A stretch of 64,000 bases of DNA from Fistulifera solaris (lineage: Eukaryota). Position numbers and translations under genes: made by a program. The notes under the pieces are model-generated. The model had not been told where the DNA came from and did no database searches. It worked only from the letters and a program-made list of their open reading frames with translations. Each line of letters starts with the position of its first letter. The stretch's first letter is position 1. Below are positions 54,885 through 62,805 of the stretch, piece by piece. The stretch lies in contig AP026172.1 in assembly GCA_030295235.1 (NCBI GenBank), positions 434,001 to 498,000 on the forward strand. The letters run 5' to 3'.

Positions 54885-55883
54885 TTACATCAAAGGTTCG
54901 CCATCATCATTGCTGTGGCGAGCCTCCTCGGGAGGATTCTCTGAATCATCTCCCCTATCTTGCTTTGAAACCTTGACAGCAACTCGCCTCATCCGCCTGC
55001 AAAGTTCCGGACGATCCTTGACAAAAAGTTCATGGAAATAACCACCGCGGGCCGGACCGGCATTGATCAACTCGAATCCGTATAAATTGAGCTGCCTCTT
55101 GAAGGAGCTTAATCGACTCTGACGAAAATACAACGGCACAATATCCTTAAAGAAGCTATCGGAATTGTGAATGGCAAACGCGCGACCGCCGGCAATGAAC
55201 GAAATCACATCGGATCGACCGGCTGCTTCGACTTCCCGCAACAAACGGTGTAATTTCTCTGGAAACGGCTCAATGACACCGCCTCGCAATCGTCGATTGG
55301 TATCGCGATGAAAGAGTGCGTGCGAAGAGCCGAGGTCGGACTGCTGCAAAAAGTTCGGATTCATACTGCTCGAATTGCTCATTGGATTCATGAAAAGACG
55401 AGAATCTTGGATGAAACCTGGCTGCAACATCTGATTGACACCCCCAGTCACCATACCTTGCGATAGGGACGTGTCGAAGCGAGGGTTCGGCGACTTCTGT
55501 TCGAACATGGATTGCAATAAGGAAGCATCGTTGGTATTGCGTTGACTTCCTTGCATCAGCAAAGCATTTCCAACAACACCTGTAGAATTCATCTGATGTA
55601 GTTGCTGCAAACGTTTAATTTCGTTCGAAATGTTTAAACTCGTTTGTTGCTCACTCGAATTCATGTTCCCCTGTGTCGGCATCATTTGTGACTGGGAATT
55701 GTTCATTTGCATTTGAAATTGTTGTTGCTGGAGCATGGAAGCGATCGCATTGGTGTCCAGCGGCTGTCCGGCCTGACTTGATGATGGAGGCCGAAATGAA
55801 TTCTGATTGTTCATACGATCAAAACTAGCGAAACCGTTGCCGTTGTTGCCATCCATCGAGAAAAAAGACTCTTGCATCGTCAT
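54885..55883 (-). CDS. Heat shock factor (HSF-type DNA-binding domain) transcription factor
   Basis: FPEKLHRLL...VISF...GRAFAIH...F...VPLYFRQSRLSSFKRQLNLYGF...YFHELFVKDRPELC, with a Q/N/S-rich N-terminus. Confidence 0.9.
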   Translation of the reverse strand: MTMQESFFSMDGNNGNGFASFDRMNNQNSFRPPSSSQAGQPLDTNAIASMLQQQQFQMQMNNSQSQMMPTQGNMNSSEQQTSLNISNEIKRLQQLHQMNSTGVVGNALLMQGSQRNTNDASLLQSMFEQKSPNPRFDTSLSQGMVTGGVNQMLQPGFIQDSRLFMNPMSNSSSMNPNFLQQSDLGSSHALFHRDTNRRLRGGVIEPFPEKLHRLLREVEAAGRSDVISFIAGGRAFAIHNSDSFFKDIVPLYFRQSRLSSFKRQLNLYGFELINAGPARGGYFHELFVKDRPELCRRMRRVAVKVSKQDRGDDSENPPEEARHSNDDGEPLM

Positions 55884-56731: not shown

Positions 56732-57582
56732 TTATTTCGATTCAAGGGACATGCAATTATAAACCAAAACAGGACCATTGGCATATTGTTTGGCAAACTC
56801 CAGGCCCGATTGGGTCGGACTGGAAAATGCCGTTTTTTGAACGGGTACGACCATACCAAAGACCCTGTGCTTGCGCGCCGCCGTCACCAAACACGACGCG
56901 AATCCCTTTCGTCGAAACTTGGAATGCACCCATAATAAAAAAACTCCCATGACCGCTTCACGACGCTCGGATGGATGGACGGTAAACGCTTCCTCAATGG
57001 TTTCGGCCACGACGAGTCCCACGACACGGTTCCTGACGATATAGAGGTAGGCCGTTTGTTGTGGCGTGAGGAGAGAATCATCCTGACTCGTAACAAAACT
57101 CAATTCTCGTTTTACCACATCGAGAACTGCAGCTAATTTGTTACGAAGATTCCGACTATCGGTCTGCCGTATCTTAAGAGCAATGACAAAAATGATGGTG
57201 AGTTCCATTATTACAAAGTATGTACACGAATCCAGAGCCTTAAGAAGATACGTACTTCCAGAATACATTCGTCCGGCGATATCTTGTTCACCAGGCGCAT
57301 CGCGGGCGTCGGCGTCAGTCTCACGCCGTGTTGAAACGCGTGACACATTTGAGCGTGCGCCATCCCATCTTCTTCTACACCGGGCACGTACATCATCCCG
57401 CACGTAGGACAAAGGACCGGTTTCCCAAAATCCCGTTGCCCCAAATCCAAGTACAGTTGTTCAAGTTTTCGTTTCTTCGGAACTGTTGTTTGCAATGGTT
57501 TGGAAGGGCGTTGGCGAACGCCAAAATAGTGGCAGATGGACAATTGCGTGTCTTTCTTTTCCTTTAAAATACACGATGTCAT
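56732..57582 (-). CDS. ECO1: Cohesin acetyltransferase Eco1/ESCO; intron 57173..57255
   Basis: Zinc finger QLYLDLGQ..F....CPTCGMMY.PG..ED...H...C, and GNAT domain GVFLLWVHSKFRRKGFAS.L...AFSSPTQSGLEFA. Confidence 0.88.
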
Positions 57583-58132
57583 TTTATATTATCAAAATAA
57601 TGATGATGCTTCACCTTCGAGAAAACTACAGATTGACTACAAAGTAGTTCGCGAATAATCAAGTTGAATGTCGTCTCTTGCCTCATCACTCATCACTCAT
57701 TTCTCATTTTTTATCGTTGTGCCTGAAAAAGCGGAGAAATCGAGAGAGGAGCGACGGGCGTGGAAGACGGTTCATAACTATTAAAATGACTGGTACTGAT
57801 CCTACGTAGAGTTGGTCACTTAGAAAACATCTCGATACAAAATAGTGCCGAGCCTTTTCCATCCAAAATGGGCGCGATGATTGTCGTCCGTTTCTTTCTT
57901 TGGTTTCGTTTCCCATTTACATATTGTTTGGATAAAAAGGACACGATACACTCACATCTCTCTTTACTCACTCGTTCAACACCAGTCCTTCTCATACATA
58001 ACACAATTCATTAGAGAACAAGAGCCCATGCTGTGTTTCCTTCGTCGGACCCCCCTACTAGCAAATCGAGTAAAGGAGGAGTAGCACTTCGAAACGCATT
58101 CCCACACACAACTACACTCTCTCTTCTAAATC

Positions 58133-58612
58133 ATGACCTCACACTTACGAGAACGCGAATGGCCCGTCCGTGTTTTTCGTCAAACTCCCGAAGGTAGTTG
58201 GGAACGATTGCGCGTTCCACGAGTGCGTGCGATCCCCCGTACAGGTTGTTTGGTCATGCCGCGCTTGCAAATTCGCATCAAAATTGATCCCCATACAACG
58301 GTCCTCCGTCGTCGACGGTGTCTCTTAATTTATTCCCAACAACAACGGGTGCGTGTGTTGGTGTTGCAATTCAAAGACTTGCAACAGTGTTTGCACTTCA
58401 CCGATGAATGGTGGAGTCTCAATCCGTCTACCTCCGTCTCGTTGGTTGAACAATCCTTGGAAGAACCGGAAGTTCAGCAGTACTTGTTTCGACTGTTGCA
58501 CGATCCGGCGTTTGTGCAATTTTGTCGGAAATTGTCCACCCATCTGCGATCGCAGCCGGATTATGTAGCGGCGTTAGAAGCGTTTGACGATGACGCAGAT
58601 GCAGAAGAATGA
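58133..58612 (+). CDS. Putative REC114/PHS1-like meiotic recombination protein
   Basis: 159-aa ORF with EWPV...SW...VLRRRRCLLIY...RVLVLQF..C..F and a C-terminal YLFRLLHDPAFVQFCRKL. These resemble REC114 N-terminal PH-fold and C-terminal helical motifs as recalled; not searched. Confidence 0.55.
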   Translation: MTSHLREREWPVRVFRQTPEGSWERLRVPRVRAIPRTGCLVMPRLQIRIKIDPHTTVLRRRRCLLIYSQQQRVRVLVLQFKDLQQCLHFTDEWWSLNPSTSVSLVEQSLEEPEVQQYLFRLLHDPAFVQFCRKLSTHLRSQPDYVAALEAFDDDADAEE

Positions 58613-58706: not shown

Positions 58707-61131
58707 TCAAATACTACTCGTCTCCAACAGATGCAGAACAATCAGTTGCATCCCCGTGCGCTTTTGCAACGAGGACGCGGTATTGTCCAAATCCCGGCCG
58801 GGCGCCAAACTGTTCACGCACACGCGCGCCACCTTGGCGGCCGTCAACAAGTTGCGATCCCGAAAGGCCAACACGTGACGGAAAAACGAAATCACATACA
58901 CAAAGATATTGTAATGAATCGGAGGAAGATCTTCGATCAGTCGTCGGGCACTTGATTGAATCGTTTGCGAGTCAATTTCGACCGTAGGAAATAACTTGGT
59001 CGGTACTACCGGAGAAGAAAGACTGGAAAGGAGGGACACCAAAGTGTCGGCATAGGAATGGATGGAATAACGCCCAAAGGCCGTTCCAGTGTCGAGACAT
59101 TCGCGAATGTCGGCTGTTTCTTCGGGGATGCCCGCTTCCACAAACAAATGAGGTTCGGCCAGGCCTTTTTGGTAAATGGCATCAATGCAGCGCCAGAGCT
59201 CTTTGGGAATACACAGCGCTGTACTCGTGTTGGTCGGGTCAATCTTCTTGGCCCGTTCCAGTGGATCAATGGGAATACTACGGATCGGTTCGGAATACAT
59301 GACGAGCTCATCGGCTGCCATACCAAAACAAGACCGCGCAAACGATGCTTTGACCGTGATGTAATAGTCACGACCATCTTCCAGACGGAGAATCACAATG
59401 TCATCCAAAACCTCTCGTCCCGAATTGAGTAATTGGGCCGTGTAGCTGTCAATTGTAATGGTGAAAGTCACCGTCAAAGGTGGATCACCGGGCACCAACA
59501 TGCCAAAGGCCGGCTTGACCGAGAGCCAACGTTTGCAGATACCGACCTGTCACCGAGGAGTTCAGAAATGCGGCATCCACCGGCTACAAAGCCAGAATCA
59601 TTCACGTACCTCATCGGTTTTGGGAACGAACCGAAAAATAGCCACGACACTCCCAATGTTCGTGATACGAATCGATAAAGTTTTGCGTTCCTGGTAACGT
59701 ACGGGTCCCAATTCCAACGCCACTTGATCCAATTCAATGACCGGAAGCGTTTGAGGATTCTCATAGCGACTCAATAAGGCATTCAACTCGGCATAAATGG
59801 CTTCCCGTTTCTCTTGAATAACATCCTTGACGGTCAATTGGAGGGAACTGTACACGGGTTTGTGATCGGAACAATTGGGTCGTTCACTTCTTTGATAGGT
59901 CAATTGCTGCACGTGTTCGGCTTGTTGAGACATCCACAAAATGCGATCACACCATGCCGGCGCTCGTAACTTCTTTTCGGGACGCTGTTCGTACATATCG
60001 GTGCCGGGTTGGTACTTGTAGGTTGGCGCAAAGTGCAAGACCCCTTCCTGAAATCCGGTAAAGACCCGACCGGCGGCGCGTTCCATATTCAATTGATCCA
60101 ATTGACGCAACTCGGGTGGGACACTGCGCGAACTTTGACATGTTTCCGACAATTTCAATATGTGTTCTGTGGGCATGGATTCATCAATTCGATAATTGAG
60201 ATCACCCAACCAAAAAGTATGATCATGATCGGCCAAGCCGACCGTCGTGGATTGACTGGCAAAGTGCGACAACGACCCGGACCGAATGACTTCTCGAATG
60301 GCGGCCTCCCCGACATCGAACGTGGTCTTGGAAAAGACATTGGCAAAATCGGCATTCCGACCGGTGACATTCTCGCGATGTGCGGCCAAATGACTGCACA
60401 CAAAGCACAAGGACGAATCGTAAAATTGCAACCGGACACTGACACCTCCCTTGTTGCCCATCATGCCCATGACACCGACTCCCACTTGACTCGTTTGAAC
60501 GTACTGGACTTTGGGATAATGGGGAAATCGTACAAAGACACAAATCAACAATCCGACCATACTTTTTTGCGCCACCAGTACATAGCGACGCTGCGGATCC
60601 TGATTCGCGTGTTGATTGAGAGTGAAGTTCAATCGTTCCGTCCAAAACTGCGAACGTTGTTGGGTTTTGTTATCGACAGCGACATTGACGGCATTGAGAT
60701 CGACAATTTCTTGAAAACCGACGGCGACCAAATCGGGCAATCCCTGGGAGGTCCAATCAGCGCACAACCATTCGTCGAGGGGTTCTACTTCTTTGCCTTT
60801 GGCATTGACATTCCAGGTGCCTGTAAATACGAGTGCCTGCGTCAAAGTGGAAAAGAGATTGAGTATAATAATAGGAAATACGACACGACAAAAAGTACCC
60901 GGTTCGTCGTTTCTTCCATTTCGGCTTTCCTTTGCTACTACGATCCATCCATACCTTACGATATTGCGTAAATTCCTCTTGTCGTGCCCGCACTTTACTG
61001 TAAATCCAAATATCCCGTATTTTCGCAATCGCTTCCTTGTTGCGGACCCTTCCATCTTCGGTTTCTTCATCCGGTTGAAGTGGCACCAATACTTCATCTT
61101 CGATGGGTTGGAGTGTAGTTGCTGCTGCCAT
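58707..61131 (-). CDS. OCRL: Inositol polyphosphate 5-phosphatase, OCRL/INPP5B type (5-phosphatase, ASH, RhoGAP-like); introns 60837..60954 and 59547..59609
   Basis: FTGTWNVN, VGFQEIV, GNKGGVSVR, FWLGDLNYRI, PAWCDRILW and SDHKPV; then DDIVILRLEDGRDYYITV and CIPKELWRCID...IRECLDTG. Confidence 0.9.
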
Positions 61132-61668
61132 GCTTGAATTCTTTTCTTCCTTTCTTTCGTTTTCGAGCCGCGGAGAAGTTTATTATTGTCGGTAATGTGT
61201 GATAGAATGGAGTACGGTACGGTACCACGTAGTCAAAGCTCTGTATCTCACTCAGTACGGGTAACTCCTGTTCATCTCTTCATCTAAAAAATACAAGGAT
61301 CCTCCTTTTTCACATATTATCGTCGCGTTGTTTTTTTAGTATTTGGCGTTGAAAATAAAAAGCTGAAAGCTCTCTCATCGCCGGATATTCGTTGGAGTTT
61401 GATCACGTTTTTGACTAAATAATTTGGTTACGGTGGTGTACTTTTGGAGTACCGTTCTATTGGATCGTGACTCGAAACTCGTGATACGATAAAAGCAATC
61501 ACGACAAATGAAACAACATAGGAAACGAACGAACAATACCAACAGTACCTGGTATAGCTATTATTATTTATTTTTTGTGATGAGTGTCAACGATAACATT
61601 CACTTCTTACTTCCTACACATCCCATACATGAACAAATAGAGTAATTAATTAATTAATTAACAACAAC

Positions 61669-62805
61669 ATGCCGACCTTCCAATCCATCCGTATGCATCC
61701 GCAATTACGTCTCGTATCGGGCGATCACGTCATTATTGAAACACCACAAGCCCTGTTGTCGCGTCATCCCGCGCAGTTGCAATTGTTGCGCGATGATGAG
61801 GAAGATGGCACTGGGCAAATACTCGCGTTACCCGTGATTGAAAAACTACGGCACGAAGTTGCACAAGCGCTCATTGAACAATCGTTCACCGGACAGCGGG
61901 TTCGTGAAATTGAGCAACGCATCCTCCAATGGACCGATAATGACAATGACGACACAACAACAACAACAACAACATCCATCCGCTTTCCCGGCACGGTATC
62001 TCTGCACCAATTACTCCAATACGAAACGACAATCCGACCACCAAACCCTCTTACGACCGGATGTCCTACTTTAGATACATGGCTGGATTGGGGTCTCGTT
62101 GTACAAATCGCGGGTCCATCAGGTACGGGGAAAACACAACTCGTCTTGCAACTCCTGGCCCAGAATGGGGGTCACTACTGGTCCAGTGATCCAGCTTTGC
62201 GATCCATTGCCAAACGCTGGCAAGAATTGGGTTCCAGTAACGAAAAAGAAGTTTCCTTTGCTTACGTACAAAATGAATACGATTTGTTGCGGCAATTACA
62301 GAAAATCATCACGTCCGATCACGCCCCGCCCATCCTCGTAATCATCGATTCCTTTTCGACGTGTTTGACCAACGTGGAATATTCAGATACCTATATGCGT
62401 CAACAAATCACCGGTGTATTGCGATCGGTCGCTCAACATTACCAGATAACCATAGTTCTCGTCAATGGGACCGTCGGGGCGGCCAAACACGACACTTCGT
62501 CAGTGGTCGAGAATGACAAAAACGAAAACGACGACAACGACAACGACAACGACAGCATCGACAACGACGACGATGACGAAAAAGATCCTCCAAACGTCTT
62601 TCGTTCTTCTGCTAGCAAACCGGCCCTTTCATGGTGGAACGTAGACGATATTCGGATATGGATGGAGACTGCGGCAGATCAACGTACTGTACAAATTCGA
62701 TTGGATCGACATCTCACGCGAAGACAGAATGAAAGGTTGACGGTGCGGATCGATCGTGCCGGAGTAACGGAATTCGTGACGACAACACGATTGTGCGATG
62801 CGTGA
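61669..62805 (+). CDS. RAD51 paralog (RecA-fold; RAD51D/XRCC-like)
   Basis: LTTGCPTLD, Walker A GPSGTGKTQL, Walker B LVIIDS, KPAL..W and a C-terminal IDRAGV, with a D/N-rich insertion. Confidence 0.7.
   Translation: MPTFQSIRMHPQLRLVSGDHVIIETPQALLSRHPAQLQLLRDDEEDGTGQILALPVIEKLRHEVAQALIEQSFTGQRVREIEQRILQWTDNDNDDTTTTTTTSIRFPGTVSLHQLLQYETTIRPPNPLTTGCPTLDTWLDWGLVVQIAGPSGTGKTQLVLQLLAQNGGHYWSSDPALRSIAKRWQELGSSNEKEVSFAYVQNEYDLLRQLQKIITSDHAPPILVIIDSFSTCLTNVEYSDTYMRQQITGVLRSVAQHYQITIVLVNGTVGAAKHDTSSVVENDKNENDDNDNDNDSIDNDDDDEKDPPNVFRSSASKPALSWWNVDDIRIWMETAADQRTVQIRLDRHLTRRQNERLTVRIDRAGVTEFVTTTRLCDA

Follow-up and report, generated by a model that had tools for sequence, protein, structure and literature searches.

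The window analysed here, a stretch of 64,000 nucleotides from contig AP026172.1 of Fistulifera solaris, carries on its forward strand an intronless gene whose 159-amino-acid (aa) product, P0001, is probably a compact member of the REC114/PHS1 family. The gene is a complete ATG-to-TGA frame of 159 codons (Table 1). As an in-frame TAA (58127–58129) lies two codons 5′ of the ATG, the N-terminus of P0001 cannot be extended without an intron. Five homologues with 63–82% identity are colinear with P0001 from start to stop, which fits an intronless gene. In a preliminary description of the locus, made from the DNA letters, this open reading frame (ORF) had been proposed to encode REC114 on account of several short motifs, and we found the frame and all of these strings in the translation: EWPV (residues 9–12), SW (22–23), VLRRRRCLLIY (57–67), RVLVLQF (74–80), and LFRLLHDPAFVQFCRKL (118–134). 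P0001 is flanked on both sides by genes of the minus strand, a divergent ESCO1/2-type gene upstream and a convergent OCRL-like gene downstream.

P0001 belongs to a protein family found in diatoms. A word-indexed search returned the five close relatives mentioned above, one of them titled 'hypothetical protein FisN_6Hh236 [Fistulifera solaris]'. In an exhaustive phmmer search of 1.84 billion cluster representatives, 113 proteins scored E ≤ 1e-3 (the query included, so 112 others), and 35 of them E ≤ 1e-10. Source labels of the members name Nitzschia, Craspedostauros, and Cylindrotheca fusiformis, and the cluster of the divergent member P0072 includes a transcript from Coscinodiscus wailesii; its known range thus extends from raphid pennates to radial centrics. 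Culture transcriptomes with the labels MMETSP1442 and MMETSP1066 contain homologues as well. A profile search of a 5.8-billion protein set retrieved 30 proteins, none of them named as to family, and the four with an organism label were all diatoms; this search reached no outgroup and gave no score between E 1e-15 and 10. Metagenome locus scans with alignment A1 and with P0007 yielded no match, and no functional name for the family was present in any source searched.

For column counts we used an alignment (A2) of 111 sequences, comprising the six close ones and 105 of the 112 representatives. The seven proteins left out have 351–592 aa (P0061, P0070, P0090, P0094, P0101, P0116, and P0117). For the longest of these, the low-complexity protein P0070 (592 aa), phmmer reported 8 matching stretches and hmmscan a large number of unrelated Pfam models but no clean domain; its presence in the family list is probably a false positive caused by composition. 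Two residues, R60 and F80, occur in every row of A2 (111/111), while R16, W23, R59, C86, F89, D91, N97, L121, and F127 are kept in at least 90% of the rows; F/Y15, W23, and F80 are conserved aromatics. Both a PH-like domain and a C-terminal module were present in 99 of the 111 rows.

The AlphaFold2 model of P0001, computed from A2 without templates, had a mean predicted local distance difference test score (pLDDT) of 89.5. It contains eight strands within residues 10–80, a capping helix (83–96), and, after a linker, helices 111–123, 125–140, and 142–157. The N-terminal PH-like fold and the C-terminal helix foreseen in the preliminary description were thus both recovered, the latter as a set of helices with the published SSM7 register (see below). 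P0072, which has 299 aa and is 34% identical to P0001, consists of the same modules. Its model (alignment A3, 113 rows) had a pLDDT of 71.8, with residues 155–233 at 43–68 and the C-terminal helices at about 90, so that a linker of about 80 aa, modelled with low confidence, connects the modules.

In Foldseek searches of 350,542 PDB chains, the PH domain of mouse REC114 (7qwv_A) came first for P0001 (E 1.2e-3, TMt 0.61, root-mean-square deviation (rmsd) 3.2), and further REC114 PH chains took ranks 2 (6nxf_A) and 7 (6hfg). VIA-align, which is independent of Foldseek, was run as a second look at 999 chains and as a wide search of 48,161 chains. REC114 was found at rank 8 of the former (Z 10.9, rmsd 2.3, 96 aligned residues, 19% identity) and, as 6nxf_A, at rank 2 of the latter (Z 10.8, rmsd 2.8, 99 aligned), where its 18% identity was the highest of the list. 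For P0072 the wide search placed REC114 at rank 1 (Z 9.9, rmsd 3.1, 98 aligned), again with the highest identity (20%), ahead of the Homer3 EVH1 domain and the N-terminal domain of CARM1 (CARM1-N), both at Z 9.5. CARM1-N, which is the closest solved neighbour of the REC114 PH domain according to Kumar 2018 (PMC6288613), ranked 6 (Z 10.1) for P0001 and 3 for P0072 in the wide searches. The models show the N-terminus of P0001 to be a PH-superfold domain. Throughout, REC114 is at or near the top among the solved structures for the predicted folds of P0001 and P0072, and it has the highest sequence identity, but its Z-scores are tied with those of other folds (see below).

A third line of comparison came from the ESM Atlas. 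The top feature match of P0001 (0.92, 187 of 256 features) was a cluster in which 15% of the members are REC114-like (PF15165). Next were REC114, PHS1 (0.85–0.86), and Rec7 clusters, and the ten best family-carrying matches all belonged to the family or clan of the top one. In the structural search of the same resource chordate REC114 came first (TM 0.55). By the calibration of the tool itself this result is a lead, and the family is the one that had been named beforehand. Residues 101–159 alone gave no usable feature match in the Atlas, and the structural rows retrieved with them were generic helical proteins.

Conservation within the family is highest at R59 (101/111 rows) and the invariant R60, which lie on a β-hairpin of the PH-like domain (strand 55–60, turn 61–62, and strand 63–68 in the model); the preceding column 58 is most commonly V or I. 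The register of the hairpin is identical to that of the TOPOVIBL-binding strands of mouse REC114, V97-R98-R99-M100-x-C102-x-L104, as judged from the residue numbers printed in papers only. According to Nore 2022 (PMC9671922), V97, R99, M100, C102, and L104 of the mouse protein are on strands that bind a TOPOVIBL helix, and R99 and R117 are 'well-conserved'; R98 is described as well conserved by Kumar 2018 (PMC6288613). No counterpart of mouse R117 could be placed in the diatom PH domain. The net charge of this domain in P0001 equals the family median (+11).

The linker that separates the PH-like domain from the C-terminal module (N97 to Y117) is polar and has 18–94 aa in the family, with a median of 44. 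With 19 aa P0001 represents the short extreme, which agrees with the earlier remark that the protein has 'almost no linker'. Its linker corresponds to the variable linker of the longer members, which is probably disordered. The C-terminal module is constant across A2 rows (29–44 aa), and the tail that follows varies from 0 to 63 aa. In P0001 the module includes Y117, L118, L122, F127, V128, F130, C131, L134, S135, and L138. F127 is present in 106 of 108 rows and stands directly past the turn between helices 111–123 and 125–140.

This arrangement can be set against the SSM7 motif of Saccharomyces cerevisiae Rec114 as described by Liu 2023. There, F411 is nearly invariant and located just past the turn, I412 is moderately and V415 highly conserved, the nearly invariant E419 bridges to Mei4 R29, and I402/L406 pack on V418, L422, and M425. 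Counting from F127, which takes the place of F411 (offset 0), the diatom columns are I/V/L at −9 (yeast I402), L in 84 rows at −5 (L406), L/V at +1 (I412), V (77) or C (17) at +4 (V415), L/I/V at +7 (V418), E in 93 of 109 rows at +8 (E419), and L/I at +11 (L422). In total, 8 of the 9 yeast positions agree with the family columns, as do 2 of 2 further mouse offsets. In the mouse protein F240 is the conserved Phe, and F230 and F243 are also inside the ring (Daccache 2023, PMC10393190); F230/F240/F243 correspond to Y117/F127/F130 of the diatom protein, with column −10 occupied by Y (76), H (14), or F (5) and column +3 by F (61), Y (20), or L (19). A regular expression derived from the yeast offsets matched 62 of the 111 members, and 71 when the Glu was omitted. 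Among shuffled controls the full pattern occurred once in 22,200 sequences shuffled over their whole length and once in 55,500 with only the last 60 residues shuffled. It was absent from the six-frame translation of the window, in which the version without Glu matched the P0001 ORF only.

Taken system by system, P0001 is like mouse REC114 (6HFG, 6NXF, 7QWV) in its PH-like domain, for which the mouse structures are the best or near-best match at 18–20% structure-based identity, in the adjacent conserved arginines on the hairpin with Cys at +3 and Leu at +5, and in the spacing (10 and 3) of three aromatic positions of the C-terminal helices. The C-terminal region of mouse REC114 (203–254) has been reported to bind MEI4. 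In contrast to P0001, the mouse protein is longer and has a long disordered centre, and vertebrate REC114 has a lineage-specific partner, ANKRD31. With SSM7 of yeast Rec114 the diatom module shares the helix-turn-helix, the near-invariant Phe after the turn, the register (−9/−5/+1/+4/+7/+11), and the Glu at +8. Plant PHS1 (POOR HOMOLOGOUS SYNAPSIS 1) resembles P0001 in that its clusters rank close to the top of the Atlas feature matches and, following Daccache 2023 (PMC10393190), in the plan of a PH domain with a C-terminal helix. Yet, the listed PHS1 clusters have 325–353 aa, and hmmscan gave no match of the diatom proteins to the PH_PHS1 Pfam model.

We consider membership of P0001 in the REC114/PHS1 family to be the best reading of these data, because the PH fold, the domain layout of the family, the RR hairpin, the family's SSM7 register (Phe and Glu included), and three different similarity methods all point to it. 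The REC114 interpretation of the preliminary description is thereby supported, and we regard it as quite probable that P0001 is a compact member of this family. By analogy with the animal and yeast proteins it is also fairly likely that P0001 is a diatom REC114 orthologue with a working Spo11-accessory role in meiotic breaks. The additional step, from the gene to a sexual cycle in the source organism, goes beyond the data.

A number of results weigh against this assignment, and the most direct are those of the sequence-profile searches. With hmmscan, P0001 had 0 Pfam families at E ≤ 10, and PF15165, PF03525, and PF25349, the models for the N-terminal signature motifs SSM1–6, were matched by 0 of the 129 further members at E ≤ 0.5. 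Another hmmscan touched 31 families, and the 25 of them that were shown comprise no REC114, PHS1, or Rec7 model. PDB sequence searches with P0001, A2, A3, and P0072 contained no REC114 chain at E ≤ 10. A profile match to REC114/PHS1, the lack of which the preliminary description had named among the outcomes that would speak against REC114, thus did not emerge from Pfam; a clear match to another family, a further outcome of that kind, did not appear either. Distant REC114 orthologues have been reported to share less than 10% identity and to be found by PSI-BLAST/HHsenser. The weak Pfam matches that were obtained go to other PH-superfold families: PH_35 was matched below threshold in 7 of the 129 members (best E 1.3e-4), and single sub-threshold matches were to WH1 (E 0.16), DCP1 (E 0.17), CARM1 (E 0.055), and Pru. 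The motifs have weaknesses as well. The hairpin motif is short and weakly specific, with 5 matches in the six-frame window, and its Cys form is present in 26 of the 111 rows. The C-terminal pattern fails at offset +14, where yeast M425 faces S/T in the diatoms. Moreover, the shuffles overstate its specificity, since the residue classes were set after both sides had been seen and shuffling does not keep helical periodicity, and amphipathic helices share hydrophobic spacing in general.

The fold comparison bears on the main rival, according to which P0001 is a diatom-specific EVH1/PH-like adaptor, unrelated to REC114, in which a flexible linker connects an EVH1-type peptide-binding domain with C-terminal oligomerisation helices for non-meiotic scaffolding. 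EVH1/WH1 domains (Homer, Ena/VASP, Spred, Dcp1, PP4R3) share the superfold and scored highest or tied (Z 9.5–11.6). Homer EVH1 was the top match of P0001 in the 999-chain search (Z 11.6) and Homer3 EVH1 in the wide search (Z 11.4). No Foldseek match of P0001 reached E ≤ 1e-3 among the chains searched, and RanBD and EVH1 domains interleave with the REC114 chains; for P0072, REC114 ranked only third in Foldseek (E 3.8e-2), with two EVH1 domains above it at an rmsd near 10. A PH-like domain followed by a linker and C-terminal helices is also the layout of the Homer, Ena/VASP, and Dcp1 scaffolds, which favours such an adaptor, as do the single weak WH1 and DCP1 matches given above. The Z-scores of REC114 are tied within 1 unit with those of EVH1 and CARM1-N, and RanBD folds are tied too, so that the fold alone cannot settle the family of P0001. 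Other observations speak against such an adaptor. EVH1 rows had 10–14% identity vs. 18–20% for REC114 in the same lists, the WH1 model was touched by 1 of the 129 members and below threshold, and in the ESM Atlas, where the ten best family-carrying matches shared the family or clan of the REC114-like top one, an EVH1_PP4R3 cluster reached only 0.77. In addition, the C-terminal helices form a short helix-turn-helix with SSM7 register and not a long coiled coil. We therefore consider an unrelated EVH1-like scaffold improbable, though it is the strongest of the alternatives. The N-terminal PH-like domain of CARM1 (2OQB) is likewise near the top of the wide VIA-align searches, but it belongs to a methyltransferase, whereas P0001 has no catalytic domain and only a weak CARM1 match was seen, in one of the 129 members. 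RanBD and Dcp1 identities were rejected, as the Pfam models for these domains are sensitive and the family members have no match to them above threshold. A chance open frame between two minus-strand genes, for which the missing Pfam match of P0001 would speak, was rejected as well: it is refuted by conservation (112 other cluster representatives at E ≤ 1e-3, and five close relatives with invariant columns), by the confident AlphaFold2 fold, and by the members in transcriptome-derived sets, and we give it practically no weight.

A different objection accepts homology and questions the role. P0001 could be a true REC114 homologue that has drifted in function and become dispensable for breaks, or is used outside meiosis in mitotic recombination or repair. 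Such drift has a precedent in Arabidopsis, where PHS1/AtREC114 is reported to be dispensable for breaks, while its interactions are kept (PMC8464057, PMC10393190). In the P0001 clade, P0001 and its five closest relatives carry Ser (S135) and not Glu at the position of the Mei4-bridging E419 of yeast; the Ser-bearing proteins form one branch of a quick tree of 100 of the 111 rows (Shimodaira–Hasegawa-like approximate likelihood ratio 94; the careful tree search is unfinished). The linker is nearly gone, and the linkers of the family contain no excess of [ST]Q sites (51 observed vs. 69.1 expected). The C-terminal module is net acidic, with a family median of −3 and a value of −1 in P0001 (tail −6), in contrast to the strongly basic, DNA-binding module of yeast; together with the basic PH domain this gives P0001 a charge asymmetry opposite to the basic C-terminus of yeast Rec114. 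The transcription of homologues in the MMETSP1442 and MMETSP1066 cultures would also be compatible with a use outside meiosis. On the other hand, both modules are under strong purifying conservation across diatoms, which argues for a retained specific interaction. The Caenorhabditis elegans protein DSB-1 also lacks the Glu and is nevertheless a functional paralogue (Liu 2023), and nothing in the data points to a mitotic role. A drifted function thus appears unlikely to us.

If P0001 acts as an orthologue of REC114 (Rec114 in yeast, Rec7 in fission yeast, and PHS1 in plants), it would be one of the accessory proteins of Spo11 in the machinery for meiotic double-strand breaks. By analogy with the mouse and yeast proteins, its basic β-sheet with the conserved R59-R60 hairpin may dock a core partner of Spo11, such as a TOPOVIBL-like subunit. 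The C-terminal helices of two P0001 molecules could interlock around F127 and embrace the N-terminal helix of a putative diatom MEI4, and the resulting 2:1 complex would help SPO11-2 to make breaks on meiotic chromosomes. A two-copy complex prediction of residues 101–159, which did not draw on the family alignment, scored 0.00/0.01 vs. a mark of 0.32 with an uncertain partner fold, which is no evidence either way. For yeast and mouse, a linker-driven, DNA-dependent condensation has been proposed. It is conceivable, if rather doubtful, that P0001 constitutes a stripped-down break module which, being near-linkerless, with an acidic C-terminal module, a basic PH domain, and a clade-level loss of the Glu, acts without such condensation. 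In that case, contact with DNA or the axis might move to the PH domain, or another partner might replace MEI4. Should the host moreover be a diatom in which sex has never been seen, the strict conservation would argue for cryptic meiosis or for a role in mitotic recombination.

The genes around P0001 were analysed in the same way (Table 1). Upstream lies the gene of a cohesin acetyltransferase of the ESCO1/2 (Eco1) type. Its domains are in two overlapping ORFs of different frames, which implies an intron or a frame change near 57211–57268. Both promoters, its own and that of P0001, are presumed to lie inside the intergenic region that the two genes share. That a gene of chromosome biology begins so close to the P0001 start codon is probably a coincidence. 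Downstream, the stop codon of an OCRL-like inositol polyphosphate 5-phosphatase gene with ASH and RhoGAP domains is 94 bp from that of P0001. One contig of run X2 skips 118 nt of this gene, with CT..AC ends on the forward strand and hence GT..AG on the reverse strand, confirming one intron. Two X1 contigs, compared over 197 and 242 bases, each show 7 mismatches to the window, and other X1 contigs are identical to it; the differing ones look like a second allele or a homeologous copy of the 5-phosphatase gene. Contigs of run X1 cover the whole 4.7 kb around P0001, and X1 looks like DNA because they extend over the intergenic stretch. No contig of runs X2, X3, and X4, which like X1 belong to one study, lies over the P0001 ORF, where lack of coverage is no evidence, and among the runs on record as RNA none contained the locus. 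Farther away, a reading frame with an HSF-type DNA-binding domain and one with weak AAA/KaiC-like P-loop ATPase matches were recognised, and six consecutive stop-to-stop ORFs without a family name may be parts of one large multi-exon gene.

Table 1. Position in the window of the P0001 gene, its predicted parts, and the neighbouring features.
Feature	Position	Strand	Basis or remark
Coding sequence of P0001, 159 aa	58133–58612	+	ORF map, in-frame TAA, colinear homologues
PH-like domain, residues 10–97, net charge +11	58160–58423	+	AlphaFold2 pLDDT 91–97, fold matches
Strands of the PH-like domain, residues 10–17, 23–25, 32–36, 39–42, 47–50, 55–60, 63–68, 75–80; capping helix 83–96			AlphaFold2
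β-hairpin V57-L58-R59-R60-R61-R62-C63-L64-L65	58301–58327	+	Column counts, AlphaFold2 strands
Short polar linker, residues 98–116	58424–58480	+	pLDDT dip to 61 in block 101–110
C-terminal helical module, SSM7-like, residues 117–151	58481–58585	+	AlphaFold2, column counts
Acidic tail DDDADAEE, residues 152–159, net charge −6	58586–58609	+	Translation, charge count
Intergenic region, 550 bp, common to P0001 and the divergent ESCO-type gene	57583–58132	.	ORF map
ESCO1/2 (Eco1)-type cohesin acetyltransferase	56732–57582	−	zf-C2H2_3 E 7.9e-15, Acetyltransf_13 E 5e-20
OCRL-like 5-phosphatase	58707–61232	−	Split over at least 2 ORFs
Intron of the 5-phosphatase gene	60836–60953	−	Gap in X2 contig
Region of the differing X1 contigs	60079–60569		Contig comparison
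ORF with HSF-type DNA-binding domain	54888–55883	−	E 5.2e-17
ORF with AAA/KaiC-like matches	61654–62802	+	AAA_25 E 2.5e-8
Six consecutive stop-to-stop ORFs, 186–670 aa	45948–53379	−	No Pfam family at E ≤ 1e-3

In the open-access literature we found no diatom REC114 in print, subscription journals and supplements being outside the search. The main texts of the diatom meiotic toolkit paper and of a 2025 paper on diatom sex markers do not mention REC114, PHS1, or MEI4, and MER2 is likewise unmentioned in the main text of the former. No open-access paper was retrieved with 'Poor homologous synapsis' and 'diatom'. In other groups, REC114 was reported to be present in 0 of 18 transcriptomes of a chrysophyte survey and not to have been recovered from Symbiodiniaceae, and the survey of REC114 and MEI4 published in 2022 was confined to metazoans.

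REC114 is a fast-evolving accessory factor that sequence-based meiosis inventories overlook. A diatom-wide REC114, if true, would bring the Rec114-Mei4 module to the stramenopiles and provide a handle for finding the MEI4 and TOPOVIBL partners of diatoms. The very short linker of P0001 would be a natural experiment on how much of the disordered region is required by the mechanism. The gene would also become a candidate marker of meiosis, beside SPO11-2, for detecting sex in diatom cultures and in ocean metatranscriptomes.

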